A DNA stretch of 64,000 nucleotides from Deltaproteobacteria bacterium HGW-Deltaproteobacteria-19 (GTDB taxonomy: Bacteria > Desulfobacterota > Syntrophia > Syntrophales > PHBD01), in the NCBI GenBank assembly GCA_002841865.1, contig PHBD01000006.1, positions 112,075-176,074 of the forward strand, given 5' to 3'. A program made the position numbers and the translations under genes. Positions 4,506 to 62,580 of this stretch are shown here, one piece after another. The notes under the pieces are model-generated. The model saw only the letters and a program-made list of their open reading frames with translations, was not told where the DNA came from and made no database searches. Positions within the stretch are counted from its first letter, which is position 1; every line of letters starts with the position of its first letter.

Positions 4506-4506
<1 letters not shown>
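3913..4506 (+). CDS. pth: Peptidyl-tRNA hydrolase
   Basis: LIVGLGNPG, RHNLGF, KPQTYMNLSG, HDDLDL, GGHRG. Confidence 0.97.
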
Positions 4507-6956
<2,450 letters not shown>

Positions 6957-27053: not shown

Positions 27054-28109
27054 TCAGCGCGGTCCGGAGCGTCCACCCGGTCCCTTACCGATCTGCCGGC
27101 CCAGCAGGATCAGGTCCTCCCGCAGGCGGGCCAGAAGAACATCCCCGTCCGGCACGGCGGCCTTTCCGGGATAGATGTCGTAACGGGCTCGCAGGGATTC
27201 GGGGGTGAAATCGGGCATGACGACGTTGGCCCCTGCCCGGAGCGCCCGGATCCGGCCTTCCGGATGAAGGGTCCCCAGGGCCGTCGTAGCGGGGATGTTG
27301 GTATTCCGGGTCAGGAGGCGGGCCAGGGCCAGGACCCGGAGCGTCCCTGCCAGGTCGCCACCCGGCTCGTCGGCAAGGGGTGTCCCCGGGTGGGGAATGA
27401 AAGGGCCGATCCCCAGCATGTCCGCATCCAGGGACCGCATCAGGAGAAGATCCTCCGCCAGGATCTCCGGTGTCTGTCCGGGGAGGCCCACCATGTTCCC
27501 CGTTCCGACCTCGTAACCCAGGTCCCGGAGGTCCTTCAGGCATCGAAGGCGGTCCTCCAGGGTGCATCCTGGCCGAAGCCGCCGGTAGAGGTCCGGAGAG
27601 GCCGTCTCGTGCTTGAGGAGATACCGGTCCGCTCCGGCCTCGCGGAAGGCCCGGTAGTCCTCCCGGGGCCGCTCACCCACCGAGAGCGTCACGATCAGGC
27701 CCGTCTCGTCCTTGATCCGACCGACGATGCGGCACAGGTCGCCACGGGTGTATGCGGGATCCTCGCCGGACTGAAGGACAACCGTGCCGATCCCCTTGTC
27801 CCGGATCCCGTGGACGGCGGCGAGGACGGCGTCCTCGTCCATCCGGTAGCGCACGACGTCCCGGTTGTCCCGGCGGAGGCCGCAGTAGAGGCAGTTCTGC
27901 CGGCAGAAGTTGGAGAACTCGACGATTCCACGGAGATGCACGGCATCGCCCACGTATTCCCGCCGGGCCGAATTGGCCGCCGTCTCGAGCGCCCCTAGTG
28001 ATGCTTCGTCCGAGAGCGACAGAAGAAAGGCCAGGTCTTCCCGGGAGAGATCCTCCCCCCGGTGGGCGGCGTCGATCAGCCTGCCGATCCGGTCCGGCGT
28101 CTCAGACAT
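27054..28109 (-). CDS. hydE: [FeFe]-hydrogenase maturase HydE
   Basis: EFSNFCRQNCLYCGLR, VLQSGED, RYLLKHET, GIGPFIPHPGTP, GANVVMP, YDIYPGK. Confidence 0.93.
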   Translation of the reverse strand: MSETPDRIGRLIDAAHRGEDLSREDLAFLLSLSDEASLGALETAANSARREYVGDAVHLRGIVEFSNFCRQNCLYCGLRRDNRDVVRYRMDEDAVLAAVHGIRDKGIGTVVLQSGEDPAYTRGDLCRIVGRIKDETGLIVTLSVGERPREDYRAFREAGADRYLLKHETASPDLYRRLRPGCTLEDRLRCLKDLRDLGYEVGTGNMVGLPGQTPEILAEDLLLMRSLDADMLGIGPFIPHPGTPLADEPGGDLAGTLRVLALARLLTRNTNIPATTALGTLHPEGRIRALRAGANVVMPDFTPESLRARYDIYPGKAAVPDGDVLLARLREDLILLGRQIGKGPGGRSGPR

Positions 28110-29499
28110 AGAGATCCCGCTGGCCTTCCTCGATCTTCCGCAGGCGCTTCTGCAGGTTATCCCGCTGGCGGGCGCTTTTCGTCTCCGCCAGGAGGCGGTC
28201 GATCAGGGCATAGCCCACGGCCTTCGCCTCCGGAGATGCATAGTCCTCCAGGTATTCCTTGTAGGTGAGGATGGCATTGGTGCGGCAGAACTTCTGGATC
28301 AGCCCCGGTTTCGCCAGATCCATGAAATCCGCGCCCGTCCGGCCGAGGCGGTAGCAGGCGGTGCAGAAGCTGGGAATATGCCCGTGGGTGCTGATGTCGA
28401 GGATCACCTCGTCGAGGGTCCGCGTGTCCCCCAGGTTGAACTGAGCCGCCCGGAATCCCTCGCTGGTGTCCTCCCGGTAGCCCCCTGGATTTGTCCGGGA
28501 ACCGGCGCTGATCTGGGAAATCCCCAGGTCGAAAACCTCGCTCCGGAGGGCCGCCGTCTCGCGGGTGGAGAGGATCATGCCCGTGTAGGGGACGGCCATG
28601 CGGATCACCGCTACGAGTTTCTTGAACTCCTCGTCGGAGACCGGATGGGGCGGCTTGATGGCCGCCGGCGCGTTGAGGGCCGGCTCCAGCCGTGGAATCG
28701 AGATGGTGTGAGGGCCCACGCCGCAGTCCCGCTCGAGCTGCAGAGCGTGGAAAAGGAGCCCCAGGACCTCGAACTTGTAGTCGTAAAGACCGAAGAGGGC
28801 CCCGATCCCCACATCGTCGATGCCGCCCTCCTGGGCCCGGTGCATCGCCGTCAGCCGCCGGACATAGTCCTTCTTGGGACCGCTGGGGTGCATCTTGCCA
28901 TATGTCCCGTGATGGTAGGTTTCCTGAAACAGGACGTAGGTTCCGATCTTCGCCGCCTTGAGCCGCCGGAACTCCTCGACTTCCAGCGGGGCGATCTCCA
29001 CGTTGATCCGTCGGATCTCTCCGCCCTTCTCCGTCTTCACGGAATAGGCCGTTTCGATGGCCTCAACGAAGTAGTCCAGGCTGGACCGGCCGGGGTGCTC
29101 GCCGCAGAGCATCAGGAGCCGCTTGTGCCCCTCCCGCTCCAGGACGCTCACTTCGCTTGCGATCTGCTCCAGGGAGAGGGCCACGCGCTTGAGGTCCTTG
29201 TTGTCCTTGCGGAATCCGCAGTAGAGGCAGTTGTTGCTGCAGAAGTTCGCGATGTAGAGGGGTGCGAAAAGAACCAGGCGGTTCCCGTAGATGTCCCGCT
29301 TGATCTGCCGGGCCGTCCGCCCGATCTCTGCCAGGAGCTCCGGGTCTTCCGTCTGCAGGAGAACGGCCGTTTCCTCCGGCGTCAGGCCTTGCAGCTTCTT
29401 CGCCTTTTCAATCAATTCCTCAACCCGCTGACGGGACGGGTTCTTCGATTCGGTGAGCAGTCGCTCGATCTTTCCGTCGTCGATGAAATCTGTGATCAT
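28102..29499 (-). CDS. hydG: [FeFe]-hydrogenase maturase HydG
   Basis: FAPLYIANFCSNNCLYC, FQETYH, GPHTISIPR, C-terminal SFCTACYR...C (Cx2Cx22C). ATG at 29499. Confidence 0.96.
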   Translation of the reverse strand: MITDFIDDGKIERLLTESKNPSRQRVEELIEKAKKLQGLTPEETAVLLQTEDPELLAEIGRTARQIKRDIYGNRLVLFAPLYIANFCSNNCLYCGFRKDNKDLKRVALSLEQIASEVSVLEREGHKRLLMLCGEHPGRSSLDYFVEAIETAYSVKTEKGGEIRRINVEIAPLEVEEFRRLKAAKIGTYVLFQETYHHGTYGKMHPSGPKKDYVRRLTAMHRAQEGGIDDVGIGALFGLYDYKFEVLGLLFHALQLERDCGVGPHTISIPRLEPALNAPAAIKPPHPVSDEEFKKLVAVIRMAVPYTGMILSTRETAALRSEVFDLGISQISAGSRTNPGGYREDTSEGFRAAQFNLGDTRTLDEVILDISTHGHIPSFCTACYRLGRTGADFMDLAKPGLIQKFCRTNAILTYKEYLEDYASPEAKAVGYALIDRLLAETKSARQRDNLQKRLRKIEEGQRDLYV

Positions 29500-29513
29500 T
29501 TGGTCTTTCCCTT

Positions 29514-29762
29514 CTATGCTTTGGTCAGGGCCGACTTCACCTGCACTCCCTCCAGGGCGCCCAGCTTTCCCGTGAGGGAGCCGATCTCGTCGGTCGTGGC
29601 ATGAACGATCAGGGAGATGATGTGGAGGCCCTTGGGCGGGTAGGGCAGTCCCATCCTGCCGATGACGGCCTCGCCGTGCTCGCTCAGGATGGCGTTGATC
29701 CGGTTGGCCTGGTCGGCCCGGTTCGTGATGATGATGGTGATGGTTCCGATGCGGCGGTGCAT
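29514..29762 (-). CDS. TM1266-family putative iron-only hydrogenase system regulator
   Basis: 82 aa; INAILSEHG..IGRMGLPY...IISLIV...IGSLTGKLGALEGVQVK. Directly upstream of hydG. Confidence 0.9.
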   Translation of the reverse strand: MHRRIGTITIIITNRADQANRINAILSEHGEAVIGRMGLPYPPKGLHIISLIVHATTDEIGSLTGKLGALEGVQVKSALTKA

Positions 29763-29782
29763 GCAAGCTTCCTTTCGTTGCC

Positions 29783-29820
29783 AAAAAAAAGAGGTCAGCT
29801 CCTGAAGGGAGCAGACCTCT
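29783..29820 (-). terminator. Intrinsic terminator in the 5' leader of TM1266-hydG-hydE
   Basis: Minus strand AGAGGTC-T-GCTCC-CTTCA-GGAGC-T-GACCTC followed by T8, 20 nt before the ATG. Confidence 0.85.
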
Positions 29821-29900
29821 CGCGATGGCTCGTTGTGCTCCCCTCGAGGTCAGACGGCGTCCTTCCTCTCAGGACCGGCCGGATCAACCGGCCGCCGGCT
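29783..29900 (-). ncRNA. Candidate cis-regulatory leader RNA (attenuator or riboswitch-like)
   Basis: Three-way junction fold, then an antiterminator segment GAGGGGAGCA complementary to the terminator's TGCTCCCTTC. TTGACA at 29923-29928 upstream. Confidence 0.5.
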
Positions 29901-30003
29901 ATTCATCACAGATCGGCGGGAATGTCAACGGTTATGTTGAAAATGGCATACATCTCGAACCTCGATATTCCGTGATCGCGGGGTTCTTCGCTGCAGCCCG
30001 GTC

Positions 30004-31251
30004 TCAGGGGGCCGCGGCGGCCCGATCATAGGCCAGGAGTGCCGAGGGGAAGGGCGTCAGGACCCGGCGGATGACCCCCTGGGTGTAGGAGATGGCCAGG
30101 CCGTAGTTCGTGATCGGGACGCCGGCCTCGTGGGCCTTGTGGAGACGGCTCAGCATCTCACGGCGGTTCAGCATGCAGGCGCCGCAGTGGATGACGAGCC
30201 GGTATTTGGAAAGATCCTGCGGATAGTCCCGTCCCGCCGAGACGTCCACCGCCAGCTCGCCGCCGACATACTGCCGGAGCCAGCGGGGGATCTTGACCCG
30301 GCCGATGTCGTCCTGGAGAGGATGGTGGGAGCAGGCCTCGGCGATGAGGACCGGATCCCCCGGGCGGAGGCGTTCGATGGCGGCCACTCCGGCGGCGGCC
30401 GTGGACAGGTCGCCTTTCTGGCGGGCCATGAGGATGGAGAAGGTCGTCAAGGGGACTGATGCCGGCGTGTCGCCGGAGACCTTGAGGATTGCCTGGGAGT
30501 CCGTCACCACCAGGTCCGGCGGGCGGGACAGACGGGCCAGCATGGCCGCCAGCTCCCGCTCTTTCACCATCAGGGCCGCGGCGTCACTGTCCAGGGCGTC
30601 GCGGATTGTCTGGACCTGCGGCAGGATCAGCCGTCCCTTGGGGGCCTGTAGGTCGATGGGCACCACCAGCACGGCCAGGCCGCCCGGGGGCAGGAGGTCT
30701 CCCACCAGGGGCGGCGGCTCCAGGAAGTGATCCGGCGCCGTCTCCAGGAGGTGCCGCTTCACCGCCTCCAGGGCCGCTTCCCGGCCCGCCCCGTCCGTGC
30801 TGGAGACGGCCAGGACCCGCCCGGCCTTCTCCCGGAGCGAGGCGAGGAACGCCTCCGACGGTGCGCAGAGATCCGTCTTGTTCACCACCGGGATGACGGG
30901 GATCTTGTGGGCCTTCGCTTCCCCGAGCAGGTTATCCTCGAAGTCCGTCCATGCCTCCGCTTCCGTGACGAGGAGGATCGCGTCGGCCCGGTCGAGGATC
31001 CGCCGGGTCTTCTCCAGCCGCTTTGCCGACAGTTCCGTGATGTCGTCCAGGCCCGCCGTGTCGAGGAACAGGACGGGGCCGAGGGGCAAAAGCTCCGCCG
31101 CCTTCTCCACCACGTCCGTCGTCGTTCCCGCCACGGGGGAGGTAATGGCCACCTCCTGGCCCAGCAGGTAGTTGAGGAGGCTCGACTTGCCCACGTTCGT
31201 GCGGCCGAAAAGGGCCACGTGAAGGCGGTTTCCCTTGGGGGTGGCGTCCAT
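30004..31251 (-). CDS. hydF: [FeFe]-hydrogenase maturation GTPase HydF
   Basis: GRTNVGKSS, GTTTD, DTAG, NKTD, APKGRLILPQVQ, ACSHH...HCGACM. Confidence 0.97.
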   Translation of the reverse strand: MDATPKGNRLHVALFGRTNVGKSSLLNYLLGQEVAITSPVAGTTTDVVEKAAELLPLGPVLFLDTAGLDDITELSAKRLEKTRRILDRADAILLVTEAEAWTDFEDNLLGEAKAHKIPVIPVVNKTDLCAPSEAFLASLREKAGRVLAVSSTDGAGREAALEAVKRHLLETAPDHFLEPPPLVGDLLPPGGLAVLVVPIDLQAPKGRLILPQVQTIRDALDSDAAALMVKERELAAMLARLSRPPDLVVTDSQAILKVSGDTPASVPLTTFSILMARQKGDLSTAAAGVAAIERLRPGDPVLIAEACSHHPLQDDIGRVKIPRWLRQYVGGELAVDVSAGRDYPQDLSKYRLVIHCGACMLNRREMLSRLHKAHEAGVPITNYGLAISYTQGVIRRVLTPFPSALLAYDRAAAAP

Positions 31252-31253
31252 GG

Positions 31254-32654
31254 TCAGTTCTCTTTCCGGTATCCCAGGGCGGTGAGCGACCAGGGCGACA
31301 GGACCCGGTCGATCATCTCTTTTCCCAGTTTTTCCTCCAGGAAGGCCCGCATCGTCCGGCTCTCCGAAAGGCCCTGCCTCTCCAGTTCACGGTATTCCCG
31401 GATCAGCTCCGTGGCGCGCTCGTAGCCCAGGTGGGGCACCAGGGCCGTCACCAGCATGGGGCTCCGGTCGAAGGCCCTCCGGCAGGCCTCTTCATCCGCT
31501 TCAATGCCCCGGACGTGCTCCGCCAGGAGCGCATCGGCCCGCGCCAGGAGGTCCAGCGACTCCAGGAAGGCGTCCGCCGCCAGGGGCAGGAATTCACTGA
31601 TCTGGCCGGTGCCTCGGCTCAGGGCGTCGGAGACGATCGCGTCGTTGGCGAAGACCTTGAGACCGACCTGGATCGCCGCCTCCGCCAGGACGGGGTTCAC
31701 CTTGCCCGGCATGATGGACGAGCCCGCCTGGAGGTCCGGCAGGCGGATCTCTCCGAGAAGGTTCAGGAGGCGCAGGTCTCCGGCGATCTTGACGAGGTTG
31801 GCCGCGTGGGCCTTGAGGACGCCCGACACCTCCACGAAGGCGTCCGCGAAGGCCGTCTCGCCCGTCAGGTTCTCTCCCCGGGAGAGGCCCTGTCCCGTCG
31901 TCTCGCGGAGCTTCTCGATGACCAGGAAGATATAGTCCCGTGGGGCCGCGAGCCCCGTGCCCACGGCGGTTCCGCCGAGATTGACCACCCGTAGCCGCTC
32001 TTCCCCCTTGAAGGTGCGCCAGCGGTCCCGGGAAAGCGCCTCGGCGAAAGCGGCGAACTCCGCCCCCAGCGTCATGGGAACCGCCTCCTGCAGCTCCGTT
32101 CGTCCGACCTTTACGATGGCGCCGAAGGCCTTTTCCTTCTCCTGGAAGGCCCCCTGGAGGTCCGCCGCGGCCCGGCTCAGGCTCCGCAGGCCGAAGATCC
32201 CGGCAACCTTCACGGCCGTGGGGTAGGTGTCGTTCGTGGACTGGTGGAGATTGACGTGCTCCAGGGGGTGGACAAGGGCGTAGTCGCCCTTCCGGCCCCC
32301 CAGGATCTCGATGGCCCGGTTGGCCAGGACCTCGTTGACGTTCATGTTCGTGGACGTCCCCGCCCCGCCCTGGAGGGCGTCCACGGGGAACTGGCCGGCA
32401 AGCCCGCCCGCCGCGACCTCGTCGCACGCCTGCTCGATGGCCCGGGCCCTCTCCGCATCCAGGTAACCCAGTTCGGCATTGGCCAGGCAGCAGGCCTTCT
32501 TGACCAGGGCGCAGGCCCGGATCAGCCCGGCGTTGACGCTCCTCCCGGAGAGGGGAAAGTTGCGGACCGCCCGGAGGGTGTGGATTCCCCAGTATGCGTC
32601 CGCCGGAATCTCCAGATCGCCGAGAAGGTCTTTTTCGGTGCGTGTCGGGGTCAT
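31254..32654 (-). CDS. aspA: Aspartate ammonia-lyase-like protein (fumarase/aspartase superfamily)
   Basis: YWGIHTLRA, QGGAGTSTNMNVNEV, QSTNDTYPT, GSSIMPGKVNPV. Confidence 0.85.
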   Translation of the reverse strand: MTPTRTEKDLLGDLEIPADAYWGIHTLRAVRNFPLSGRSVNAGLIRACALVKKACCLANAELGYLDAERARAIEQACDEVAAGGLAGQFPVDALQGGAGTSTNMNVNEVLANRAIEILGGRKGDYALVHPLEHVNLHQSTNDTYPTAVKVAGIFGLRSLSRAAADLQGAFQEKEKAFGAIVKVGRTELQEAVPMTLGAEFAAFAEALSRDRWRTFKGEERLRVVNLGGTAVGTGLAAPRDYIFLVIEKLRETTGQGLSRGENLTGETAFADAFVEVSGVLKAHAANLVKIAGDLRLLNLLGEIRLPDLQAGSSIMPGKVNPVLAEAAIQVGLKVFANDAIVSDALSRGTGQISEFLPLAADAFLESLDLLARADALLAEHVRGIEADEEACRRAFDRSPMLVTALVPHLGYERATELIREYRELERQGLSESRTMRAFLEEKLGKEMIDRVLSPWSLTALGYRKEN

Positions 32655-53867: not shown

Positions 53868-55346
53868 TTGGACATCCTGAACGGTCTCCTTTACGGCTTT
53901 TCCATTGCCACCCAGCCGGGCCACCTCGCCCTGGTTTTCGCCGGCTGTCTGCTGGGGACGCTGGTCGGCGTACTACCGGGTCTCGGACCGGTGGCGGCGA
54001 TCTCCATTCTTCTGCCCCTGACGTTTCATCTGCCGCCCGCCGGGGCGATCATCATGCTGGCAGGGATCTACTACGGGGTGATGTATGGCGGCTCCACCAC
54101 GTCGATCCTGGTGAACGTCCCCGGGGAAACGGCCTCCGTCGTGACCTGCCTGGACGGCTACCAGATGGCCCGCCAGGGCCGGGCGGGGGCCGCCCTGGGG
54201 ATCGCAGCCTTCGGATCCTTCATCGCCGGCACCGTCGGCATCGTCGGCCTGCAGCTGATCGCCGGGCCCCTTTCCTCCGTCGCCCTGAAGTTCGGTCCGC
54301 CGGAATATTTCGCCATCATCCTCATGGGATTCACGTTTGTCACCTACCTGGCCCCGGGATCGTCGCTCAAGGCCGGGATCATGGCCGTCCTCGGCCTGAT
54401 CCTGAGCGGCGTCGGGCTGGATCCGATCACGTCGGAGCAGCGGATGACCTTCGGGGTTCTCAACCTGTTCGAGGGGATCGGGGTGGCCCCCCTGGCCATG
54501 GGGCTCTTCGGCGTCGCGGAGGTCCTGAACCGCCTGGAGCAGGCGTCCTTCGGCAGGGTCCTGCAGGTGAAGATCCGGAGCCTCTTTCCGGACCGGAAGG
54601 ATTGGCTGTCGGCCCGGTGGGCCATCCTCCGGGGAACCCTGATCGGGTTCTTCCTGGGCATTCTTCCCGGCGGCGGGCCCGTTCTCTCCACCTTCATCTC
54701 CTATGGCGTGGAAAAGCGGATCGCGAAGGAGCCGGAGCGGTTCGGCCGGGGGGCCATCGAAGGGGTGGCCGCCCCCGAGGCGGCAAACAATGCCGCCGCC
54801 TCCACGTCCTTCATTCCGCTCTTCACCCTGGGCATTCCGCCGAATGTCGTCCTGGCGGTCCTGTTCGGGGCCTTCCTGGTTCACGGCATTCAGCCGGGCC
54901 CCCTCCTGATCCGCGACCATCCGGACATCTTCTGGGGTGTCGTGGGCAGCATGTACATCGGCAACGTCATGCTGCTCGTCCTGAATCTGCCCCTCATCCC
55001 CCTGTGGGTCCAGGTCCTCCGGATCCCGGACCGGATCCTGTATCCGCTGATCCTCCTGCTTTGCGTCGTCGGCGCCTATTCCATCAACAACAGCGTCTTC
55101 GACATCGGTGTGATGGTGGTCTTCGGCGTCGTCGGTTTTCTTCTGAAAAGGGGAAGTTACGAAGCGGCTCCACTGATCCTGGCGTTCGTCCTCGGACCCA
55201 TGCTGGAGGTGAACCTGCGGCGGTCCCTGTTGATTTCGGGGGGCGACTTCTCCATCTTCTTCACCCGCCCGATCGCCCTGGGGGCCATGATTGTCTGCCT
55301 GTTCCTCCTGGCCCTGTCTTTCCTCCGGGCAAAAAAAGGGAACTGA
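53868..55346 (+). CDS. tctA: Tripartite tricarboxylate transporter large membrane subunit
   Basis: GVLPGLG, YYGVMYGGS, GVAAPEAANNA, LGIP. TTG start. Confidence 0.92.
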   Translation: MDILNGLLYGFSIATQPGHLALVFAGCLLGTLVGVLPGLGPVAAISILLPLTFHLPPAGAIIMLAGIYYGVMYGGSTTSILVNVPGETASVVTCLDGYQMARQGRAGAALGIAAFGSFIAGTVGIVGLQLIAGPLSSVALKFGPPEYFAIILMGFTFVTYLAPGSSLKAGIMAVLGLILSGVGLDPITSEQRMTFGVLNLFEGIGVAPLAMGLFGVAEVLNRLEQASFGRVLQVKIRSLFPDRKDWLSARWAILRGTLIGFFLGILPGGGPVLSTFISYGVEKRIAKEPERFGRGAIEGVAAPEAANNAAASTSFIPLFTLGIPPNVVLAVLFGAFLVHGIQPGPLLIRDHPDIFWGVVGSMYIGNVMLLVLNLPLIPLWVQVLRIPDRILYPLILLLCVVGAYSINNSVFDIGVMVVFGVVGFLLKRGSYEAAPLILAFVLGPMLEVNLRRSLLISGGDFSIFFTRPIALGAMIVCLFLLALSFLRAKKGN

Positions 55347-55405
55347 TCCAATTGGACCAGCTCCCTTTTGTGAACGGTCTTGAAGCTATTATTCAGCCCG
55401 GCAGG

Positions 55406-57202
55406 TCAACTTTCCGCCGGATGGTGAGGATCCTCCCAGGACCCCTCGTAGGCCCGGTGAGGCACGTCGGTCCCCCGCTTCACGTAGTGCGTGTGCAGAA
55501 GCTCGTGGGACTTGTGGCCCAGGGGCTCCTTCAGGAAGATCTCGTAGATCTTCGTGATCGACGGGTTTTCGTGGGACTGGCGGAGCTTCTGGACGTCCTT
55601 GTCGTCCCGGTAGAGGGCCGATGAGCGAAGGATGCGGATCTCGTTGTTCGTCGGGATCGGCTCTCCGCCGCCGGCGATGCAGCCGCCGGGGCAGCACATC
55701 ACCTCGATGAAGGCATAGTTCGCCTTCCCCGCCCGGATCAGGTCCATCAGCTTCCGTGCGTTGCTGAGGCCGTGGGCCACCGCAACCTTCACCTCGCCCA
55801 GGGGGCCGACTGTCAGCGCCGCCTCCTTGACCCCTTCCAGACCGCGGACCGGGGTGATGTCGAGGCTTGGCAGGTTCTCGCCGGTCACCACCGCGTACAC
55901 TGTCCGGAGGGCCGCCTCCATGACGCCGCCGGTGGCGCCGAAGATCGTGCCCGCGCCGGTGTATTCGCCCATCGGGGCGTCGTAGTCCTCTTCCGGCAGG
56001 TTGAGGAAGTCGATGCCCCCCTCCTTGATCATCCGGCCCAGCTCCCGGGTCGTCAGGACGTAATCCACGTCGCGGTAGCCGCTGGAGTTCATCTCCGGCC
56101 GGGAGGCCTCGAACTTCTTGGCCGTGCAGGGCATGATGGAGACAACGATGATGTCCTTCGGATCGATGCCGGCGATCCCGGCGTAATACGTCTTCGCCAG
56201 GGCGCCGAACATCTGCTGCGGCGACTTGCAGGTGGAAAGGTTGTCCAGCAGGTCCGGAAAAAAGTGCTCGCAGAACTTGATCCACCCGGGGCTGCAGGAG
56301 GTGATCATGGGCAGCGTGCCCCCATCCTTGACCCGTTTCAGGAGCTCGTTGCCTTCTTCGATGATCGTCAGGTCGGCAGTGAAGTTCGTGTCAAAGACCT
56401 TGTCGAAGCCCAGGCGCCTGAGCGCGGCGATCATCTTGCCCGTCACGAGGGATCCAGGGGGGAGGCCGAATTCCTCGCCCAGGGCGGCCCGGATGGCCGG
56501 GGCCTCCTGGACGACGACATGCTTCGTGGGATCCTGGAGGGCCTTCCAGACGTCGTCCACGTCGTCCTTTTCATAGAGGGCTCCCACGGGGCAGGCGAGG
56601 ATGCACTGGCCGCAGGCGACGCAGGTGGACTCGATCAGGGGCAGGTTGAAGGCCGGTGTGACCCGGACGTCGCTGCCCCGGTAGGACGGCGTCAGGACGC
56701 TCACCGACTGGATGGATTCGCAGACGGTGATGCACCGGTGGCAGTTGATGCACTTGCGGTTGTCCCGGACGATGGACGGGCTGGACCGGTCGATCATGCT
56801 CTCCGGGAAAGACTCGGGGACGTCGAACCGCATAGAGCGGACGCCCACCATTTCCGCGACTCTCTGGAGCTCGCAGTTGCCGTTGCGGACGCAGAAGTTG
56901 CACTCCTGGGGATGGTTGGAAAGGAGCAGCTCCACGACCATCCGCCGGGCGTTCCGGACGCGGTCGGTCGTCGTTTTGACGACCATCCCCTCGCTGACGG
57001 GGAACACGCAGGAAGCGATCAGGCTCCGCTGGTTTTCCACTTCCACCATGCAGACCCGGCAGGCGCCGGGGGTGTGGCCGATTTCCTGCCAGGCGCAGAG
57101 GGTGGGGATCCTGACGCCCGCCTGCTTTGCGGCATTCAGGATCGTCGTCCCCGGCTCCACGCTGACTTTCTGGTTATCTATGGTCAGGGTTACTTGTGAC
57201 AT
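55406..57202 (-). CDS. hydA: Group A [FeFe]-hydrogenase catalytic subunit (HydA/HndD-like)
   Basis: N-terminal [2Fe-2S], His-ligated [4Fe-4S] (HPQECNFC), 2x[4Fe-4S]. H-cluster motifs TSCSPGW, MPCTAKKFE, EVMCCPGGC. Fused small-subunit tail. Confidence 0.96.
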   Translation of the reverse strand: MSQVTLTIDNQKVSVEPGTTILNAAKQAGVRIPTLCAWQEIGHTPGACRVCMVEVENQRSLIASCVFPVSEGMVVKTTTDRVRNARRMVVELLLSNHPQECNFCVRNGNCELQRVAEMVGVRSMRFDVPESFPESMIDRSSPSIVRDNRKCINCHRCITVCESIQSVSVLTPSYRGSDVRVTPAFNLPLIESTCVACGQCILACPVGALYEKDDVDDVWKALQDPTKHVVVQEAPAIRAALGEEFGLPPGSLVTGKMIAALRRLGFDKVFDTNFTADLTIIEEGNELLKRVKDGGTLPMITSCSPGWIKFCEHFFPDLLDNLSTCKSPQQMFGALAKTYYAGIAGIDPKDIIVVSIMPCTAKKFEASRPEMNSSGYRDVDYVLTTRELGRMIKEGGIDFLNLPEEDYDAPMGEYTGAGTIFGATGGVMEAALRTVYAVVTGENLPSLDITPVRGLEGVKEAALTVGPLGEVKVAVAHGLSNARKLMDLIRAGKANYAFIEVMCCPGGCIAGGGEPIPTNNEIRILRSSALYRDDKDVQKLRQSHENPSITKIYEIFLKEPLGHKSHELLHTHYVKRGTDVPHRAYEGSWEDPHHPAES

Positions 57203-57251
57203 GAATGTCCTCCATTCTATTCATAGAACACCGGCTCCGGTGAAAGAGCGC

Positions 57252-60200
57252 CTATATTTCCGCGTCGCAGCGCAGGCAGCGGCAGGCTTCCGCGATGGCC
57301 AGCTCCCGGGTGAATCCGAGTTCGACCTCCACAAAAGACGCGTTCCGCTGGGCCCCGTGGAGCTCCGGCATCGCCGTTTGAGGTGCTTCCTGAGTTTCCT
57401 CGTCAATGATGAGGGGGATGTCGATTTTTTCTTCAACCGGCGCTTCCCATGCAGGCTCGCCGAGAGCGGACCGGATGTCGGCGTCGATATCTGCCGCCGC
57501 CTGGTGTCCCGCTGCGATGGCGCCAATGACCGTGTCGGGTCCTGTGACGGCGTCGCCGCCGGCGTAGAACTTCGGATTCGTCGTCCGTGACTTGCTGTCC
57601 TTGGCCAGGTCGTAGCAGGCCCATTTGTTGATGACGACGCCGCTGTCCTTGGGGACGAAGGTCATGTCGGGCACCTGGCCGATGGCCGCCACGACGGCGT
57701 CCACGGAGAGGGTGAACTGGGAATCCTTGATGGCGACGGGCCGCTTGCGGCCGCTCCGGTCGAAGTCTCCAAGTTTCATCCGCTCGCAGGTGATGCCGCT
57801 GACCTTGCCGTCCTTCCCCTCGATCCTGAGGGGCGCCGCGAGGAACTCGATCTTGATGCCCTCATCCAGGGCCGCCGTCACTTCCTCCCCTGCGGCGGGC
57901 ATTTCCTTCCGTTCGCGCCGGTAGAGGATGGTCACGTCGGCGCCCATCCGCTTGGCGCAGCGGGCGGCGTCGATGGCCGAGTTCCCGCCGCCGATGACGG
58001 CCACTTTCGACCCGAGGGTCTTGCCGCCCTTCATCCAGGCGTTTTCATCGAGGTTGAAGGCCCGCAGGAATTCCACACCGCCCCAGACTCCCTGGAGATC
58101 CTCTCCGGGGACGTCCATCTTTGTACTCTTGTGGGCTCCCGTGGCCAGGTAGACGTAGTCGAAGTCCTTGCCCAGCCTGTCGAAGGGCAGGTCTTTCCCC
58201 ACCCGGACGTTACAGCGGATCTCGACGCCGAGCTGACGGATGTCGTCGATCTCGCCGTTCAGGATGTTCCGGGGCAGCCGGTAGGACGGAATGGCCCAGC
58301 GCAGCATGCCGCCCGGATCGGGAAGCTCTTCGAAGACCGTCACGGAGTAGCCCCGGAGCGCCAGGTCCCGGGCGGCCGTGAGGCCCGCCGGACCGGCGCC
58401 GACCACGGCGATCTTCTCCTTCCGGGTGGCCGGAACGGGGCTGACCTTGGGTCGCGGGGCGTTGTCGGTGATGAACCGCTTGAGAAATTTGATGGCAATG
58501 GGCTCGTCCATCTTGCCGCGGCGGCACTTGGACTGGCACTTGTGATCGCAGACGCGGCCGCAGACAGAGGGGAAGGGGTTCGTCTTCAGGAGAACCTTGT
58601 AAGCGTCCTCCAACCGCTCCGCCCGGATCAGGCTGATATAGGCCGGAATATCCATCCCGATGGGACAGGTGTTCTGGCAGGGGGATTTGAAGAGGGCCGA
58701 GCAGACGGCCGCCCCGCAGTGCTTGTTCCGGATGTGATCCTCGTACTCCTGACGGAAATAGCGGATGGTGCTGAGCACGGGGTTCGGCGCCGTCTGGCCG
58801 AGGCCGCAGAGGGAGGCATCCTTGATGATTCCCGCCATCTCCTCCAGGAGCTCGATGTCGCCCTCCTTGCCCTTTCCCCGGGTGATGTTCGTGAGGATTT
58901 CAAGCATTCGCTTGGTTCCCTCGCGGCAGGGGGTGCACTTCCCACAGGACTCGTCCTGGCAGAAATCCATGAAGAACCGGGCCATGTCGACGGCGCAGTT
59001 GTCCTCGTTCATGACGATGAGTCCGCCGGAGCCCATGATGGCGCCCAGTTCGGCCACCTTTTCGTAGTCCACCGGGGCGTTCAGGTGCTGGATGGGGATA
59101 CAGCCTCCGGAAGGCCCGCCGAGCTGGGCGGCCTTGTATTTCTTGTTCTTGGGAATACCGCCGCCGATGTCAAAGACGATCGTTCCCAGGGGTGTTCCCA
59201 TGGGGACTTCGACGAGTCCCACGTTGTTCACGTCGCCCGTCAGCGCGAAGACCTTGGTTCCCTTGCTCTTCTCGGAACCGACGCTGGCGTGCCAGGCGGC
59301 GCCTTTCAGGATGATCTGGGCGACGTTGGCCAAGGTTTCGACGTTGTTCAGGACGGACGGACGCTGCCACAGTCCCGCGATAGCGGGGAAGGGCGGCCGC
59401 GGACGGGGCATGCCCCGTTTCCCTTCGATGGAGGTCATCAGTGCCGTTTCTTCGCCGCAGACGAAGGCGCCGGCACCCTGGTAGATCTCCAGGTTGAAGT
59501 CGAAGCCCGTGCCGAGGATGTCCTGTCCCAGGAGCCCCATATCCGTGGCCTGATTGATGGCGACGTTCAGGCGGTGGATGGCCAGGGGGTATTCGGCCCG
59601 GCAGTAGATGTATCCGTGATGGGCGCCGATGGCCTTGGCCGCGATGACCATGCCCTCGAGAACCGCATGGGGATCTGCTTCCAGGACGCTGCGGTCCATG
59701 AAGGCCCCGGGATCGCCTTCGTCGGCGTTGCAGAGAACGTACTTGATGTCGCCGGGGGAGGTGGAGCAGAACTTCCACTTCAGGCCCGTGGGGAACCCGG
59801 CGCCGCCGCGGCCCCGGAGGCCCGAATCCAGCATGACCTGGACGATTTCCGCGGAAGTCATCTCGGTCAGGGCCTTTGCCATGCCGGCATAGCCGTCCCG
59901 GGCGATGTACTCCTCGATCCGCTCCGGGTCGATGAGACCCCGGTTGCGGAGAACCCGCAGCTCCTGCAGGGCGAAAAACGGGATTTCCTGCATCGTCGGG
60001 ATGACCGCTTCCGTGGTCGGCTCCCGGTACAGCAGGCGTTCCAGGACGCGTCCCTTCACCAGGTGTTCTTCCACCAGTTCCGGCACATCCTCCGCCTTGA
60101 TCATCATATAAATAATGCCCTCGGGGTAGACCACCATGATGGGGCCCTGGGCGCAGAATCCGTTGCAGCCCGTTTCCACCACCTTGATCTCCTCGGCGAG

Positions 60201-60308
60201 ATTGCGCTTCATCAATTCTGCCACCAGGGCCTTTTTGACCGCAAGGCTTCCCGAGGCATGGCAGCCTGTCCCTCCGCAGAGCAACAGATGTGAACGAAAT
60301 ACTTTCAT
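57252..60308 (-). CDS. Hydrogenase beta subunit: NuoF/HydB fused to a GltD/NfnB-like FAD oxidoreductase
   Basis: Trx-like [2Fe-2S], GLRGRGGAGFPTG, NADEGDPGAFMDR, GAFVCGEETAL, ESCGKCTPCREG. Then SPCQNTCP..CGRVC, GAGPAGL, GGGNSAID, YRR, AGGD, CRCLRC. Confidence 0.92.
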   Translation of the reverse strand: MKVFRSHLLLCGGTGCHASGSLAVKKALVAELMKRNLAEEIKVVETGCNGFCAQGPIMVVYPEGIIYMMIKAEDVPELVEEHLVKGRVLERLLYREPTTEAVIPTMQEIPFFALQELRVLRNRGLIDPERIEEYIARDGYAGMAKALTEMTSAEIVQVMLDSGLRGRGGAGFPTGLKWKFCSTSPGDIKYVLCNADEGDPGAFMDRSVLEADPHAVLEGMVIAAKAIGAHHGYIYCRAEYPLAIHRLNVAINQATDMGLLGQDILGTGFDFNLEIYQGAGAFVCGEETALMTSIEGKRGMPRPRPPFPAIAGLWQRPSVLNNVETLANVAQIILKGAAWHASVGSEKSKGTKVFALTGDVNNVGLVEVPMGTPLGTIVFDIGGGIPKNKKYKAAQLGGPSGGCIPIQHLNAPVDYEKVAELGAIMGSGGLIVMNEDNCAVDMARFFMDFCQDESCGKCTPCREGTKRMLEILTNITRGKGKEGDIELLEEMAGIIKDASLCGLGQTAPNPVLSTIRYFRQEYEDHIRNKHCGAAVCSALFKSPCQNTCPIGMDIPAYISLIRAERLEDAYKVLLKTNPFPSVCGRVCDHKCQSKCRRGKMDEPIAIKFLKRFITDNAPRPKVSPVPATRKEKIAVVGAGPAGLTAARDLALRGYSVTVFEELPDPGGMLRWAIPSYRLPRNILNGEIDDIRQLGVEIRCNVRVGKDLPFDRLGKDFDYVYLATGAHKSTKMDVPGEDLQGVWGGVEFLRAFNLDENAWMKGGKTLGSKVAVIGGGNSAIDAARCAKRMGADVTILYRRERKEMPAAGEEVTAALDEGIKIEFLAAPLRIEGKDGKVSGITCERMKLGDFDRSGRKRPVAIKDSQFTLSVDAVVAAIGQVPDMTFVPKDSGVVINKWACYDLAKDSKSRTTNPKFYAGGDAVTGPDTVIGAIAAGHQAAADIDADIRSALGEPAWEAPVEEKIDIPLIIDEETQEAPQTAMPELHGAQRNASFVEVELGFTRELAIAEACRCLRCDAEI

Positions 60309-60347
60309 TGGGTTTCCATCCTCCTTCACGTCAGAGATTCCGTCCCG

Positions 60348-60731
60348 CTATTTTACGATTTCCGCGCCCCGTGCGAGGACGAAGGGCGTCTGGATCTCCC
60401 CCTCCAGGACGTGTTTCTTGAATACCTGCCGCATCTTGTTGGCGTCCATATACTCGTATTTGATCGGTTCCTGGCCGATCAGCTCAACCGTGACCAGGGG
60501 CTCGCGGCTGCAGAGACCCATGCAGCCCGAAGTGGTGATGGCCACGTCGATGACACCGGCCTCTTCGATGACCTTCATCAGGGCATCCATGACGTCCCGC
60601 GCTCCCGAGGCGATTCCGCAGGTCCCCATGTGCACGGTGATCTTCGCGCGGCGCTCTCCATCCCGGAGGGCCGTTTCGGCGTGCACCCTCTCCTTGATCT
60701 TTTTGAGATCTTCGATCTTCAGCTTTGCCAT
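60348..60731 (-). CDS. Thioredoxin-like ferredoxin subunit (HndB/HydD-like)
   Basis: VHMGTCGIASGA, SGCMGLCSREP. Confidence 0.88.
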   Translation of the reverse strand: MAKLKIEDLKKIKERVHAETALRDGERRAKITVHMGTCGIASGARDVMDALMKVIEEAGVIDVAITTSGCMGLCSREPLVTVELIGQEPIKYEYMDANKMRQVFKKHVLEGEIQTPFVLARGAEIVK

Positions 60732-60762
60732 AGTGCCGTTCCTCGCCTTTGCAAGAGTCTTT

Positions 60763-61257
60763 TTATTCGTACTGGTTGAGAAGTTCCTTCACCTTGCCGG
60801 GTTTGACGCGTCCATGGACGTCTTCGTCCACCACCACCACCGGTCCCAGGCCGCAGGCGCCGAGGCAGCGCACGGATTCATAGGTGAACCGCCGGTCGGG
60901 TGTGGTCTCGCCTTCCTTGACACCGAAGACTTTCTCAAGTGCCGCCGCGATGGCCTTGCCACCCCGGACATAACAGGCAGTGCCGAGGCAGACCCGGACC
61001 GTGTGCCGGCCCTTGGGTGTCATGGTGAAGAAAGAGTAGAACGTAACGACGCCGTACACACGGCTGAGTGGCAGATTGAGGCCTTCTGCGATCCGTTTCT
61101 GTATTCCGATGGGCAGGTATTCCAGAACCATCTGGGCCTCTTCCAGTACAGGAATCAACCCCCCCGGCTTGCCCCTGTACTTCTCGATGATCGCATCGAG
61201 TTTCACGATCTGTTCCTGTGAAAACTCCTTCAACAGTTCTTCGTTAACAAGTTTCAT
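60763..61257 (-). CDS. NuoE-like [2Fe-2S] subunit (HydC/HndA)
   Basis: VYGVVTFYSFF, VCLGTACYVRG, RCLGACGLGP. Confidence 0.93.
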   Translation of the reverse strand: MKLVNEELLKEFSQEQIVKLDAIIEKYRGKPGGLIPVLEEAQMVLEYLPIGIQKRIAEGLNLPLSRVYGVVTFYSFFTMTPKGRHTVRVCLGTACYVRGGKAIAAALEKVFGVKEGETTPDRRFTYESVRCLGACGLGPVVVVDEDVHGRVKPGKVKELLNQYE

Positions 61258-61288
61258 AAATGCGTTATCCTCCTTCCCGTCAACAGGG

Positions 61289-61837
61289 TCACGCCCCTGC
61301 TTCGATTTCCATTAAACCTTCATCTACCTGCAGGCGGATCCAGGCCAGGATCTCCGGGTGGTTGAGAGGGATATCCCCGATCTCTTCCCGGATCTCCCGG
61401 GTGTCCAGGAGAAAACTCCGCCCTCCCCGCTCGTGGCGGTAAATCAGTTCAATCTTCGGGTGACCCGTGAGGATGGTCACCAGGGTGCCCGCAATGTCGC
61501 CCAGGGGTTGGCGGTCAATGTGCGCGAGTCCGAACGTTACCCGGATCCTCGTCCCCTCACCGGGTTTCGATTCCAGGATCAGTCCGCCTCCGGTTTTCCC
61601 GGCCGCTTCCCCCAGCATGGGAAGCCCCAGGCCGACCCGGCGGACTTTTTTTGTCGTATAGAACGGATCCAGAACTTTTGCGAGGGTCTCTTCCGTCATT
61701 CCGATCCCGTCGTCCCGAATCTCCAGCGTTAAACGGTCCTCCTCCGGATTTTCCCGGATGGTGATAAATATATGCTTCGCCTCCGCCCGGGTGGAGTTTT
61801 CCGCGATGTCCAGCACGTGCAGGGAGAGCTCCAGCAT
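61289..61837 (-). CDS. Stand-alone HATPase_c (histidine kinase-like ATP-binding) protein
   Basis: ELSLHVLDIAENS, DDGIGM, DPFYTTK..RRVGLGLP, HIDRQPLGD. Confidence 0.85.
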   Translation of the reverse strand: MLELSLHVLDIAENSTRAEAKHIFITIRENPEEDRLTLEIRDDGIGMTEETLAKVLDPFYTTKKVRRVGLGLPMLGEAAGKTGGGLILESKPGEGTRIRVTFGLAHIDRQPLGDIAGTLVTILTGHPKIELIYRHERGGRSFLLDTREIREEIGDIPLNHPEILAWIRLQVDEGLMEIEAGA

Positions 61838-61842
61838 CCGGG

Positions 61843-62580
61843 CTATTCCTCGATGGTCCGTCCTGCCTGTTTCCGGAAGGCCATCGACAATTCCTTCACC
61901 GAGACGGTTTCGACCCTCACGGCTGTCCAGGCCCTCCCGATCTCCCGGAGATGATGGGCATCCGAAGAGGTGATAAAGGAGAAACTCTCCAGTTCCGGAT
62001 AACGGAGCCGCCCACCGCGGATTCCCGTTTCTGCAGATATTTCCAGTGCGTCAAATGGGGGGCCCGGGACGACGAAACCGAGCTGGCTCAAGATGCTGAA
62101 GCTTTCCCGGTCGATGTGGGATGCCACGGCCAGTCCTCCCAGGCCATGGATTTTCTCCACGATAGCCTGCAGCGGAAGTTCCGTAGCCCCGATGAGAAGG
62201 CGGTCGCAGAACCCTTCCACCTCGTCCCGTTCGTTGACAATGGCCTGACAGCCAAAGCGCCGCTCGTCATTACGGCCGGGAAGGTGTCGACTGATCCATT
62301 CCTGAAGAGGGAGAATCTCCTCCACCTTGTCAAAGAGAGCCAGGAGATGCACTTCCTCCCGGCTTGCGATCTCCATTCCCGCCAGCACGGTGAGCGGCGT
62401 TCCCTCGGCGCATCGCCGGACGTAGGCGACATTTTCCGAGGCGTTGTGGTCGCAGATGGCCACGGCATCCAGCCCGACGGCCAGGCAGCGCTCGACCAGC
62501 TTTCGGGGGTACATGTCCAGTTCCGCACAGGGCGACAGGCAGGAGTGAACGTGCAGGTCGCAGCGGAGGCCCTTCATCAT
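61843..62580 (-). CDS. PHP-domain phosphoesterase
   Basis: DLHVHSCLSPC, ICDHN, EEVHLL, SHIDR, SSDAH. Confidence 0.9.
   Translation of the reverse strand: MMKGLRCDLHVHSCLSPCAELDMYPRKLVERCLAVGLDAVAICDHNASENVAYVRRCAEGTPLTVLAGMEIASREEVHLLALFDKVEEILPLQEWISRHLPGRNDERRFGCQAIVNERDEVEGFCDRLLIGATELPLQAIVEKIHGLGGLAVASHIDRESFSILSQLGFVVPGPPFDALEISAETGIRGGRLRYPELESFSFITSSDAHHLREIGRAWTAVRVETVSVKELSMAFRKQAGRTIEE

Follow-up and report, generated by a model that had tools for sequence, protein, structure and literature searches.

A HydABC-type [FeFe]-hydrogenase of the Syntrophales with a predicted NfnA-like NADPH module in place of the ferredoxin-like domain of its HydB subunit

The 64,000-nucleotide stretch of DNA analysed here (the window) belongs to contig PHBD01000006.1 of Deltaproteobacteria bacterium HGW-Deltaproteobacteria-19, a member of the order Syntrophales, and carries an operon for a hydrogenase whose flavoprotein subunit is a fusion. 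From its predicted subunits, the enzyme is a cytoplasmic [FeFe]-hydrogenase of the HydABC(D)/Hnd type, i.e. of the Bfu family. In its HydB subunit (HydB/HndC/BfuB) the ferredoxin-like B3/B4 domain is predicted to be replaced by two [4Fe-4S] clusters, flavin adenine dinucleotide (FAD) and a site for the phosphorylated nicotinamide nucleotide NADPH, all of the NfnA/StnC type. The reading that we favour, at somewhat less than an even chance, is that the enzyme would link H2 to both NADH and NADPH without ferredoxin. Published work is cited by PubMed Central (PMC) identifier, and statements about it refer to the passages available of each paper.

A first-pass annotation of the window had predicted a minus-strand fused subunit of about 1018 amino acids with an N-terminal thioredoxin-like [2Fe-2S] domain and a NuoF core carrying the motifs GAFM, PPFP and GGPSG. 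The positions of the frames, the length and the domains were all confirmed. The open frame reaches a GTG at 60329 (57252-60329, 1025 amino acids), and residues of the fused subunit are numbered from this GTG throughout. The likely start is the ATG at 60308, with AAGGAGG just 5' of it; the 1018 amino acids read from there equal the length of a 100%-identical protein in a public collection (P0005). Pfam places 2Fe-2S_thioredx at residues 12-88, Complex1_51K at 168-337, SLBB at 360-409, NADH_4Fe-4S at 448-532, Fer4_20 at 539-624 and Pyr_redox_2 at 639-941. Solved HydB chains (7t2r_B, E 5.9e-236; 7q4v_B, 4.4e-226; 8a6t_B, 2.7e-207; phmmer) each align with residues ~8-549. The cysteines of the thioredoxin-like [2Fe-2S] domain B5 (C18, C23, C55 and C59) are present, as are those of the B1 [4Fe-4S] cluster in the NuoF-type core that characterises the Bfu family (C462, C465, C468 and C508). 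GAFM lies at 208-211 within DPGAFMDR at 206, PPFP at 312 and GGPSG at 404-408, with A209, M211 and F314 as the marker residues. As the earlier annotation had stated, these three motifs have been put forward as marking B subunits that bifurcate; the proposal is that of Losey et al. 2020 (PMC7311640).

The resemblance to HydB ends shortly after the zinc site. The residues C445, H532, C538 and C543 make up, at sequence level, the B2 site of three Cys and one His that is known from Nfn-Bfu structures (PMC12018979, PMC11829005), and the HIRxKxCxxxxC motif aligns with HydB/StnB of Acetobacterium woodii, Thermoanaerobacter kivui and Sporomusa ovata (7q4v_B, 8a6t_B, 8oh5_B). C551 and C555 stand 8 and 12 residues past C543, the last Cys of the zinc site, so that seven residues lie between C543 and C551. 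They are the first ligands of two GltD-type [4Fe-4S] clusters and align with C104 and C108 of the NfnA chain 9bov_A; in the alignment, the GltD-type ligands begin where the B3/B4 domain starts in HydB. The absence of a 2x[4Fe-4S] ferredoxin domain after the core, claimed in the first-pass annotation, was upheld: no CxxCxxCxxxC(P) motif occurs anywhere in the fused subunit, Pfam finds no Fer4 dicluster domain in it, and the matches to solved HydB end at ~549, before B3/B4.

What follows is a complete GltD-type module with its iron-sulfur domain, two Rossmann motifs and YRR, as had been predicted; Fer4_20, Pyr_redox_2, the motifs and the alignment with 9bov_A all support it. VVGAGPAG is found at 642 (GAGPAG at 644), GGGNSA at 780 and YRR at 803-805, and a C-terminal RCLRC segment completes one [4Fe-4S] cluster of the module. 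The stretch GGGNSA...LYRRERKEMPA is nearly identical in the four NADPH-using solved enzymes that were aligned. The two Arg of YRR presumably bind the 2'-phosphate. The best solved match is NfnA of Caldicellulosiruptor saccharolyticus NfnABC (9bov_A, residues 101-567, E 5.3e-106), followed in order by 4ylf_B (Thermotoga maritima NfnB), 9n5u_A (T. sibiricus NfnA), 8oh5_C (S. ovata StnC) and 5jca_L (Pyrococcus furiosus NfnL). The module and 9bov_A have a permuted topology in common: RCLxC forms the N-terminal start of NfnB/NfnL and lies at the module's C-terminal end, and HMMER aligns RCLRC as a separate stretch both to residues 5-43 of 4ylf_B and to the N-terminus of 5jca_L. C551, C555, C594, C598, C602 and K617 correspond to C104, C108, C147, C151, C155 and K170 of 9bov_A, and RCLRC to its ...RCLEC end. 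In NfnA the A7 cluster is held by Cys108, Cys147, Cys151 and Lys170 (PMC11829005). The equivalent ligands in the module are C555, C594, C598 and K617, which leaves C551, C602, C1018 and C1021 for the second cluster, and all eight positions, Lys617 included, match the A6/A7 clusters of NfnA in the alignment.

This match bears on how the module may work. The NfnA-type module is a plain wire from NADPH to the clusters (PMC11829005), and the non-Cys ligand of the FAD-proximal cluster in the bifurcating NfnL is Glu, not Lys (PMC12018979). A second bifurcating centre has been raised as a possibility by Zheng and Huang (PMC11406978). Here the FAD would act like that of NfnL, external ferredoxin would bind at the distal GltD-type cluster, and the enzyme would combine a hydrogenase with an Nfn-like transhydrogenase. 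The module is indeed 40-odd % identical to the NfnB/NfnL chains 4ylf_B (E 2e-100) and 5jca_L (E 9e-94). However, Lys617 is found in 60 of 60 orthologs, as in NfnA; in its best match and its permuted topology the module agrees with NfnA/StnC rather than NfnL; the operon holds no gene for a PyrK-like or NfnS-like [2Fe-2S]/FAD partner (Pfam); and no Rnf was found in the genome to recycle ferredoxin. We regard a ferredoxin-using enzyme with two bifurcating centres as quite improbable. The hydrogenase-transhydrogenase hybrid suggested in the first-pass annotation, in a version with a second bifurcating flavin, is weakened by the Lys ligand. A plain wire is favoured over a second bifurcating flavin because of the Lys ligand and the NfnA-like topology. 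By its sequence, the module has the features of an NfnA/StnC module (two [4Fe-4S] clusters, one with three Cys and Lys, FAD, an NADPH motif and a C-terminal RCLxC) and is closer to NfnA/StnC than to NfnL, a kinship new here. In NfnA/StnC the module is embedded in a NuoG-like A subunit with an N-terminal [2Fe-2S] site and a molybdopterin-like C-terminal part; here it is B that carries the module, next to a normal HydA.

The cofactor ligands were followed in 60 orthologs from 60 genomes of the order. The ligands of B1, B2 and B5, the three markers of Losey et al., GxGxxA and YRR are invariant (60/60), with C18 and C55 (59/60 each) and C468 (58/60) as the exceptions; among the invariant positions are C462, C465 and C508 of B1 and C445, H532, C538 and C543 of the zinc site. 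Likewise, C551, C555, C594, C598, C602, K617, C1018 and C1021 are present in all 60. In an alignment of 22 fusion proteins with identity down to 34%, the zinc site, the cluster Cys and GxGxxA are kept in 21-22 and YRR in 19-22 of the proteins. The Lys ligand is found in 16 of the 22 and Glu in four, and the Losey markers are looser (12-18 of 22). The order-wide conservation of the fusion and the invariance of its ligands are new here.

The remaining subunits are those of the Bfu family. HydA has an N-terminal [2Fe-2S] site, a His-ligated [4Fe-4S] site, 2x[4Fe-4S] and the H-cluster domain (Pfam Fe_hyd_lg_C, E 6.5e-102; also Fe_hyd_SSU, Fer2_4 and NADH-G_4Fe-4S_3), and ends without a further [2Fe-2S] domain at the C-terminus. 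It scores above the group cut-offs of NF040763 (906 bits vs 765) and TIGR02512 (548 vs 406). The H-cluster motifs P1, P2 and P3 read TSCSPGW, MPCTAKK and EVMCCPGGCIAGGGEP, as in group A [FeFe]-hydrogenases. Among solved structures, A. woodii HydA1 matches best (7q4v_A, E 3.4e-197, residues 1-574), and it shares the TSCSPGW variant. HydC has the Cys of the C1 [2Fe-2S] cluster of the Bfu family at positions 90, 95, 131 and 135, and these are kept in 60 of 60 orthologs. The HndB-like subunit has three Cys in total, with His34, Cys38, Cys70 and Cys74 in place of four Cys. These four residues are invariant in 57 of 57 orthologs, which fits a metal site or a cluster with a His ligand better than a subunit devoid of cofactors.

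In solved Bfu enzymes, low-potential electrons leave the [B1-FMN-C1] centre, where FMN is flavin mononucleotide, through C1, B3 and B4 to ferredoxin, with the help of a swinging HydC/NfnC domain (PMC11829005, PMC12018979); this route agrees with the role of ferredoxin exit that the earlier annotation had given to the C-terminal domain of HydABC. In the window enzyme, low-potential electrons from C1 would instead pass to the two GltD-type clusters, which stand in the place of B3/B4, and on to FAD. The FAD would pair the electrons and reduce NADP+, so that the net reaction would be 2 H2 + NAD+ + NADP+ = NADH + NADPH + 2 H+, with no ferredoxin involved. In a syntroph the reaction would run in reverse, NADH and NADPH being co-oxidised toward H2, and a more reduced NADPH pool would replace ferredoxin as the driving donor for the oxidation of NADH. 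With NADPH taken at about -370 mV, our own Nernst arithmetic gives H2 ceilings of ~3 Pa for NADH alone, ~100 Pa for NADH with NADPH and ~0.15 bar for NADH with ferredoxin. The values of E0' for H2 and NADH are -414 mV and about -280 mV (PMC9304861). The first-pass annotation had proposed two pyridine-nucleotide sites coupled to H2. The part of this that stands is an intact NADH/FMN site together with a full FAD/NADPH-type module at the place of the ferredoxin exit, and coupling of both to H2 is the most economical reading of that arrangement.

A simpler enzyme can also be envisaged, in which NADH at FMN and NADPH at FAD would feed or drain the same cluster chain independently, without bifurcation, and either nucleotide would be accepted. 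Such a dual-entry hydrogenase would resemble the NADH-only enzymes of Syntrophomonas wolfei and Syntrophus aciditrophicus with an NADPH port added. The loss of B3/B4 goes together with the loss of bifurcation in S. wolfei Hyd1ABC (PMC11406978, PMC9304861), ferredoxin-independent NADH hydrogenases are known in syntrophs (PMC7311640), and the module is of the plain-wire NfnA type. S. wolfei Hyd1ABC and S. aciditrophicus HydAB are also like the window enzyme in their syntroph context and in having no B3/B4, and both are ferredoxin-independent (PMC7311640). However, these characterised non-bifurcating B subunits carry other residues at the marker positions (T/S and K/S/A, and Tyr), have no GGPSG and no extra flavin module, and are without the B2 and B5 sites (PMC7311640, PMC9304861). 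In the window enzyme and its orthologs, A209/M211, F314, GGPSG and the B2 site are present in 60 of 60 and the B5 Cys in 59-60 of 60. The module is moreover attached at the low-potential exit, whereas mid-potential electrons enter on the side of HydA. The invariant markers and zinc site suggest an FMN centre that has kept the mode of action it has in HydABC, which argues against the simple dual-entry enzyme, and we consider that enzyme unlikely.

A third alternative is that the module serves another substrate, such as polysulfide or sulfur (SudA/Nso-like) or Fe(III) (SfrB-like), or is mainly structural. GltD-family modules do occur in sulfide dehydrogenase, NsoC and SfrB, but the module binds NADPH even in these enzymes (PMC7483475). 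The FAD and NADPH motifs and all cluster ligands of the module are invariant in the 60 orthologs, which argues against a structural relic, and the only partners seen next to the fusion in 60 sampled loci are H2-forming or formate-forming subunits. This alternative is very improbable.

The window enzyme was compared with related enzymes. Hnd of Desulfovibrio fructosovorans, which is mentioned in PMC7483475, belongs with the electron-bifurcating HydABC(D). HydABC(D) of A. woodii (7q4v/8a5e), T. kivui (8a6t) and T. maritima (7p5h) matches HydA, HydC and residues 8-549 of the fused subunit at full length and shares the zinc site, the B5 domain and the Losey markers. It differs in having a C-terminal 2x[4Fe-4S] ferredoxin exit, where the window enzyme has a ~475-residue Fe-S/FAD/NADPH module. 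Nfn-Bfu/Stn (C. saccharolyticus NfnABC 9bov, S. ovata StnABC 8oh5, T. sibiricus 9n5u) has in common with the window enzyme the BC core, the permuted NADPH module, the cluster of three Cys and Lys, and GGGNxA/YRR. In Nfn-Bfu/Stn, however, the module sits in the A subunit as a mid-potential input and replaces the hydrogenase site, whereas B keeps B3/B4 and reduces ferredoxin; in the window enzyme the module is on B in the place of B3/B4 and a real HydA is present as well. NfnAB/NfnSL (T. maritima 4ylf/4yry, P. furiosus 5jca) has a homologous two-cluster/FAD/NADPH subunit, but this is unpermuted, has the Glu ligand and needs a PyrK-like small subunit; the genome has such a pair of its own on another contig, C86. 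HdrA of ANME-1 archaea carries an NfnB-like insert in its ferredoxin domain (PMC9012536). This is an independent instance in which a putative NADPH/FAD module occupies the part of a bifurcating enzyme that handles ferredoxin, though the host enzyme, heterodisulfide reductase, is unrelated.

The closest published relative is sub-type I BfuB (Zheng and Huang 2024, mSystems, PMC11406978), in which B3/B4 is replaced by a two-cluster DPD_II domain and an FAD/NAD(P) domain. Homologs of this sub-type were listed in several phyla, including those of Syntrophus gentianae (with BfuD) and Desulfotignum balticum. Their group A3 BfuABC(D) is like the window operon in the architecture of B and in having C, D and an M3a-type HydA in the gene set, bfuD being an optional member of such clusters. 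In the window, Fer4_20 and Pyr_redox_2 lie directly past the B2 motif, and HydA, HydC and a D-like subunit are adjacent and co-directional. The architecture was already described from genomes in 2024, including a homolog with a fourth subunit in S. gentianae, which by the names on homologs is apparently of the same order as this genome. The window enzyme is one more case, and the novelty for which the first-pass annotation had hoped does not hold. The survey of Zheng and Huang was centred on Hydrogenedentota and covered only clusters with hydA nearby, and its authors note the lack of biochemical validation. The available passages of that paper contain no Fdh or NiFe partners, no Syntrophales-wide count, no comparison of the module with NfnA and NfnL, and no biochemistry. 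Such a fusion is not mentioned in the passages available of PMC8924675, PMC5736913, PMC12583861 and PMC9304861, and no characterised hydrogenase with the same architecture was found in open-access PMC and bioRxiv.

The fusion is widespread in the order. With a 261-residue query across the junction, at least about 146 of 201 sampled genomes gave matches that covered nearly the whole query (256 residues or more), at 73-100% identity and in frames of ~1020 amino acids; four of the best 150 matches were second copies. A further 35 of the 201 genomes had weak, partial matches only, judged by best E-value. For the phylum, 121 genomes were sampled evenly, and at least 38 of them had a match across the junction in a frame of at least 750 amino acids, most of these frames being ~1000 amino acids or longer. 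An exhaustive search of 50%-identity representatives gave a dozen full-length fusion clusters among the best 150 matches. Close homologs carry names from Syntrophales or Syntrophaceae and labels such as NuoF, 'FAD-dependent oxidoreductase' or HndC.

The genes around the fusion were surveyed over ~15 kb in 60 of the genomes matched by the junction query, a non-random sample chosen for the most genera, with four genomes of the window's genus. Upstream lie HydC in 60 of 60 loci, the small subunit in 57 and an ATPase-like gene in 56, whatever the catalytic partner. Partner genes were taken as those downstream on the same strand within ~6 kb (checked with Pfam). The first-pass annotation had called for a survey of such fusions next to hydA, and a full-length HydA is the downstream partner in 15 of the 60 loci, followed in three of these by a NuoG-like gene and NiFe small and large subunits, and in one by FdhA. 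In 18 loci the partner is FdhA, a formate dehydrogenase alpha subunit with a NuoG-like N-terminus; its in-frame TGA sits in an HCARL*H context, which points to selenocysteine. Four loci have a NuoG-like gene with NiFe subunits, 19 have none of HydA, FdhA or NiFe within the ~6 kb, three are cut by a contig end, and the remaining locus has a different neighbour beside a paralog of 63% identity. At least 20 changes of partner label are required on a FastTree tree of 61 B subunits (local supports); the window's clade has five rows, all of one genus and all with HydA, and its sister clade is Fdh-linked. The flavoprotein set of the ATPase-like protein, C, D and fused B is a conserved core of the order, and the interchangeable HydA, FdhA and NiFe partners are new here. 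This set is probably shared with, or swapped between, H2-forming and formate-forming catalytic subunits. The 'four-subunit hydrogenase' of the earlier annotation fits the window, where HydA adjoins the set, but is too narrow for its relatives, in which the same set adjoins Fdh or NiFe genes. By extension, the ATPase-like protein, HydC, HndB and the NuoF-GltD fusion might form a general soluble diaphorase of the order, confurcating NADH with NADPH in the place of ferredoxin and plugged into an exchangeable [FeFe]-HydA, NiFe or selenocysteine FdhA subunit. This extension is possible but rather doubtful. The exchangeable subunits may include ones encoded elsewhere, e.g. an orphan FdhA on contig C46.

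Published models of syntrophs usually rely on Rnf, and assume hydrogenases that use NADH and ferredoxin and are fed by Rnf. The genome analysed here (87 contigs, marker completeness 100%) gave no match to RnfD and no RnfC match over the cut-off in its contigs. RnfD was not found in 177 of the 201 sampled genomes of the order; it was found in 24, which correspond to 7 of 65 genera and include 16 of 143 high-quality genomes. That Rnf is commonly not found in the order is new here. A profile search gave one Complex1_51K domain in the genome, that of the fused subunit. The NfnA/NfnB-like pair on C86, with both NCBIfam scores over the cut-offs, could pass ferredoxin electrons into NADPH.

Several points weigh against a ferredoxin-free link of H2 to NADH and NADPH. 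With near-isopotential pyridine-nucleotide acceptors, for which true bifurcation is seemingly unnecessary, it is hard to explain why the three 'bifurcating' markers should be invariant. Ferredoxin could dock on the GltD-type clusters, by analogy with NfnL, and Zheng and Huang, in describing the architecture, lean towards a possible second centre of bifurcation at the FAD (PMC11406978). The HndABCD that is abundant in a phosphite-oxidising syntroph was modelled in a 2026 study as a canonical NADH/ferredoxin enzyme supplied by Rnf (PMC12994167). Enzymology of this architecture was not found in open-access PMC and bioRxiv, a search that could miss subscription papers. The fusion also occurs in 16 of the 24 RnfD-positive genomes, so it is not a clean stand-in for Rnf. 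Finally, contig C65 breaks off within a second NuoE-like frame, and the assembly may therefore miss a second NuoF-type gene, a caveat to the single NuoF of the genome. On this contig (locus L055, 5094-6920), a 437-residue frame that joins a radical-SAM/MoaA-like part, the end of a HydA large-subunit domain and a small-subunit domain precedes the NuoE-like frame; the region may represent another NuoE/NuoF-type gene that the assembly has lost, or the contig may be chimeric.

The positions of the genes and protein segments are summarized in Table 1.

Table 1. Genes and segments of the hydrogenase operon and the maturase cluster in the window.
Feature	Position	Strand	Remarks
HATPase_c-only protein, 182 amino acids	61289-61837	-	Pfam HATPase_c, E 2.8e-17; first gene of the set
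HydC/HndA/BfuC, NuoE-like, 164 amino acids	60763-61257	-	Pfam 2Fe-2S_thioredx, E 8e-50; C1 [2Fe-2S] site
HndB/BfuD-like small thioredoxin-fold subunit, 127 amino acids	60348-60731	-	2Fe-2S_thioredx 17.3 bits, under cut-off (weak)
Fused HydB/HndC/BfuB flavoprotein	57252-60308	-	1018 amino acids from the ATG at 60308
HydB part, residues 12-533	58731-60296	-	Thioredoxin-like [2Fe-2S] B5 domain, NuoF FMN/NADH core, SLBB, B1 [4Fe-4S] helix bundle
Junction, residues 532-556	58662-58736	-	B2/zinc motif H532..C538..C543 (with C445), then C551 and C555
GltD/NfnA-type module, residues 548-1022	57264-58688	-	Two predicted [4Fe-4S] sites, FAD Rossmann, NADPH Rossmann, C-terminal RCLRC
HydA, [FeFe]-hydrogenase catalytic subunit, 598 amino acids	55406-57202	-	Pfam, NCBIfam and structure match
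HydE	27054-28109	-	NCBIfam TIGR03956/TIGR03955 matches over cut-offs at maturase cluster
HydG	28102-29784	-	NCBIfam TIGR03956/TIGR03955 matches over cut-offs at maturase cluster
HydF	30004-31251	-	HydF domains (Pfam)
Aspartase-like (aspartate-ammonia-lyase-like) gene	31254-32654	-	Adjoins HydF

The operon comprises five co-directional, closely spaced genes at 55406-61837, as seen from the list of open reading frames and Pfam. The four-gene unit described at first is present but incomplete, since the fifth co-directional gene, for the HATPase_c protein, is part of the conserved set. This protein is without a HisKA or sensor domain, its NCBIfam kinase matches are partial and far under the cut-offs, and its role is probably regulatory. 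It may go with HydS-like/SpoIIE regulatory genes on contig C35. GGAGG precedes the ATG of hydA. Pfam finds no ferredoxin gene in the operon and the neighbouring frames. Across the whole window, the sigma-54 consensus has 29 matches at no more than two mismatches vs 49 expected by chance, and none upstream of the operon; a scan for sigma-70 promoters and terminators over 55000-62400 stayed at chance level. Of the 24 runs listed in a screen of RNA runs, 16 are on record as RNA and the others are presumed to be, each with only 0.05-0.07 of the sampled words. Four runs were aligned to the window, and one contig of 8866 bases, from a library described as a metatranscriptome of a mixed culture, spans 55418-61837; its 629 differing letters and eight gaps indicate that it derives from a relative; contigs in RNA libraries are not proof of transcription, and this one says nothing on expression or operon structure.

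The local HydEFG genes noted in the first-pass annotation were recovered: hydE, hydG and hydF (27054-31251) lie within the window ~24 kb from the hydrogenase operon, with TIGR03956 at 341.5 bits and TIGR03955 at 549.1 bits at the HydE/HydG places, both over the cut-offs. In a second genome of the order (L043), a homolog of the lyase-like gene next to hydF is found a short distance downstream of hydA.

Other parts of the genome hold related genes. On contig C35 (234157-241000; L056, 4158-10772), a polypeptide of 1148 amino acids comprises an N-terminal [2Fe-2S] domain, a GltD-type NADPH/FAD module, HydA and a C-terminal thioredoxin-like [2Fe-2S] domain, and is followed by a HydS-like sensory hydrogenase (572 amino acids) and a SpoIIE-type phosphatase (392 amino acids). 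From its domains, it is a second, different predicted joining of an NADPH module to an H-cluster in the same genome. Genes for selenocysteine FdhA with a NuoG-like N-terminus are found at C46:79798-82485 (L053, 5787-8486) and C54:1572-4241, with no NuoE/NuoF-type neighbour at either. The FdhA on C46 has an in-frame TGA in HCARL*H, is 75-77% identical to the FdhA directly behind the fused flavoprotein in other genomes, and is flanked by a PAS/sigma-54 activator. On contig C26 (121080-123600; L003, L028), a frame of ~660 amino acids next to a NuoG-like gene matches residues 413-1021 of the fusion only; it has the B1 helix bundle, the zinc site and the GltD module, and no FMN core. Similar proteins of ~650 amino acids form several 50%-identity clusters (P0203, P0204, P0229 and others). 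The window itself encodes a membrane H+/Na+-pyrophosphatase on the plus strand at 4506-6953 (H_PPase, E 5e-177), which fits the pyrophosphate-based energy conservation reported for relatives.

The electron splitting of the Bfu family is still debated, and an enzyme in which the ferredoxin branch is rewired to an NADPH flavin module would provide a natural test of the parts needed for bifurcation. The finding also bears on annotation, where the fusion genes now go as NuoF, 'FAD-dependent oxidoreductase' or HndC. The fusion is common in H2-producing and formate-producing syntrophic bacteria. As the fused form is the common type of the order and Rnf was mostly not found, a role of NADPH in driving the release of H2 and formate may have been overlooked. 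The diaphorase reading, if true, would explain how H2 and formate are derived from NADH in most members of the order without an Rnf complex. If NADPH does drive the release of H2 and formate, the energetic bookkeeping of methanogenic digesters and sediments would change.

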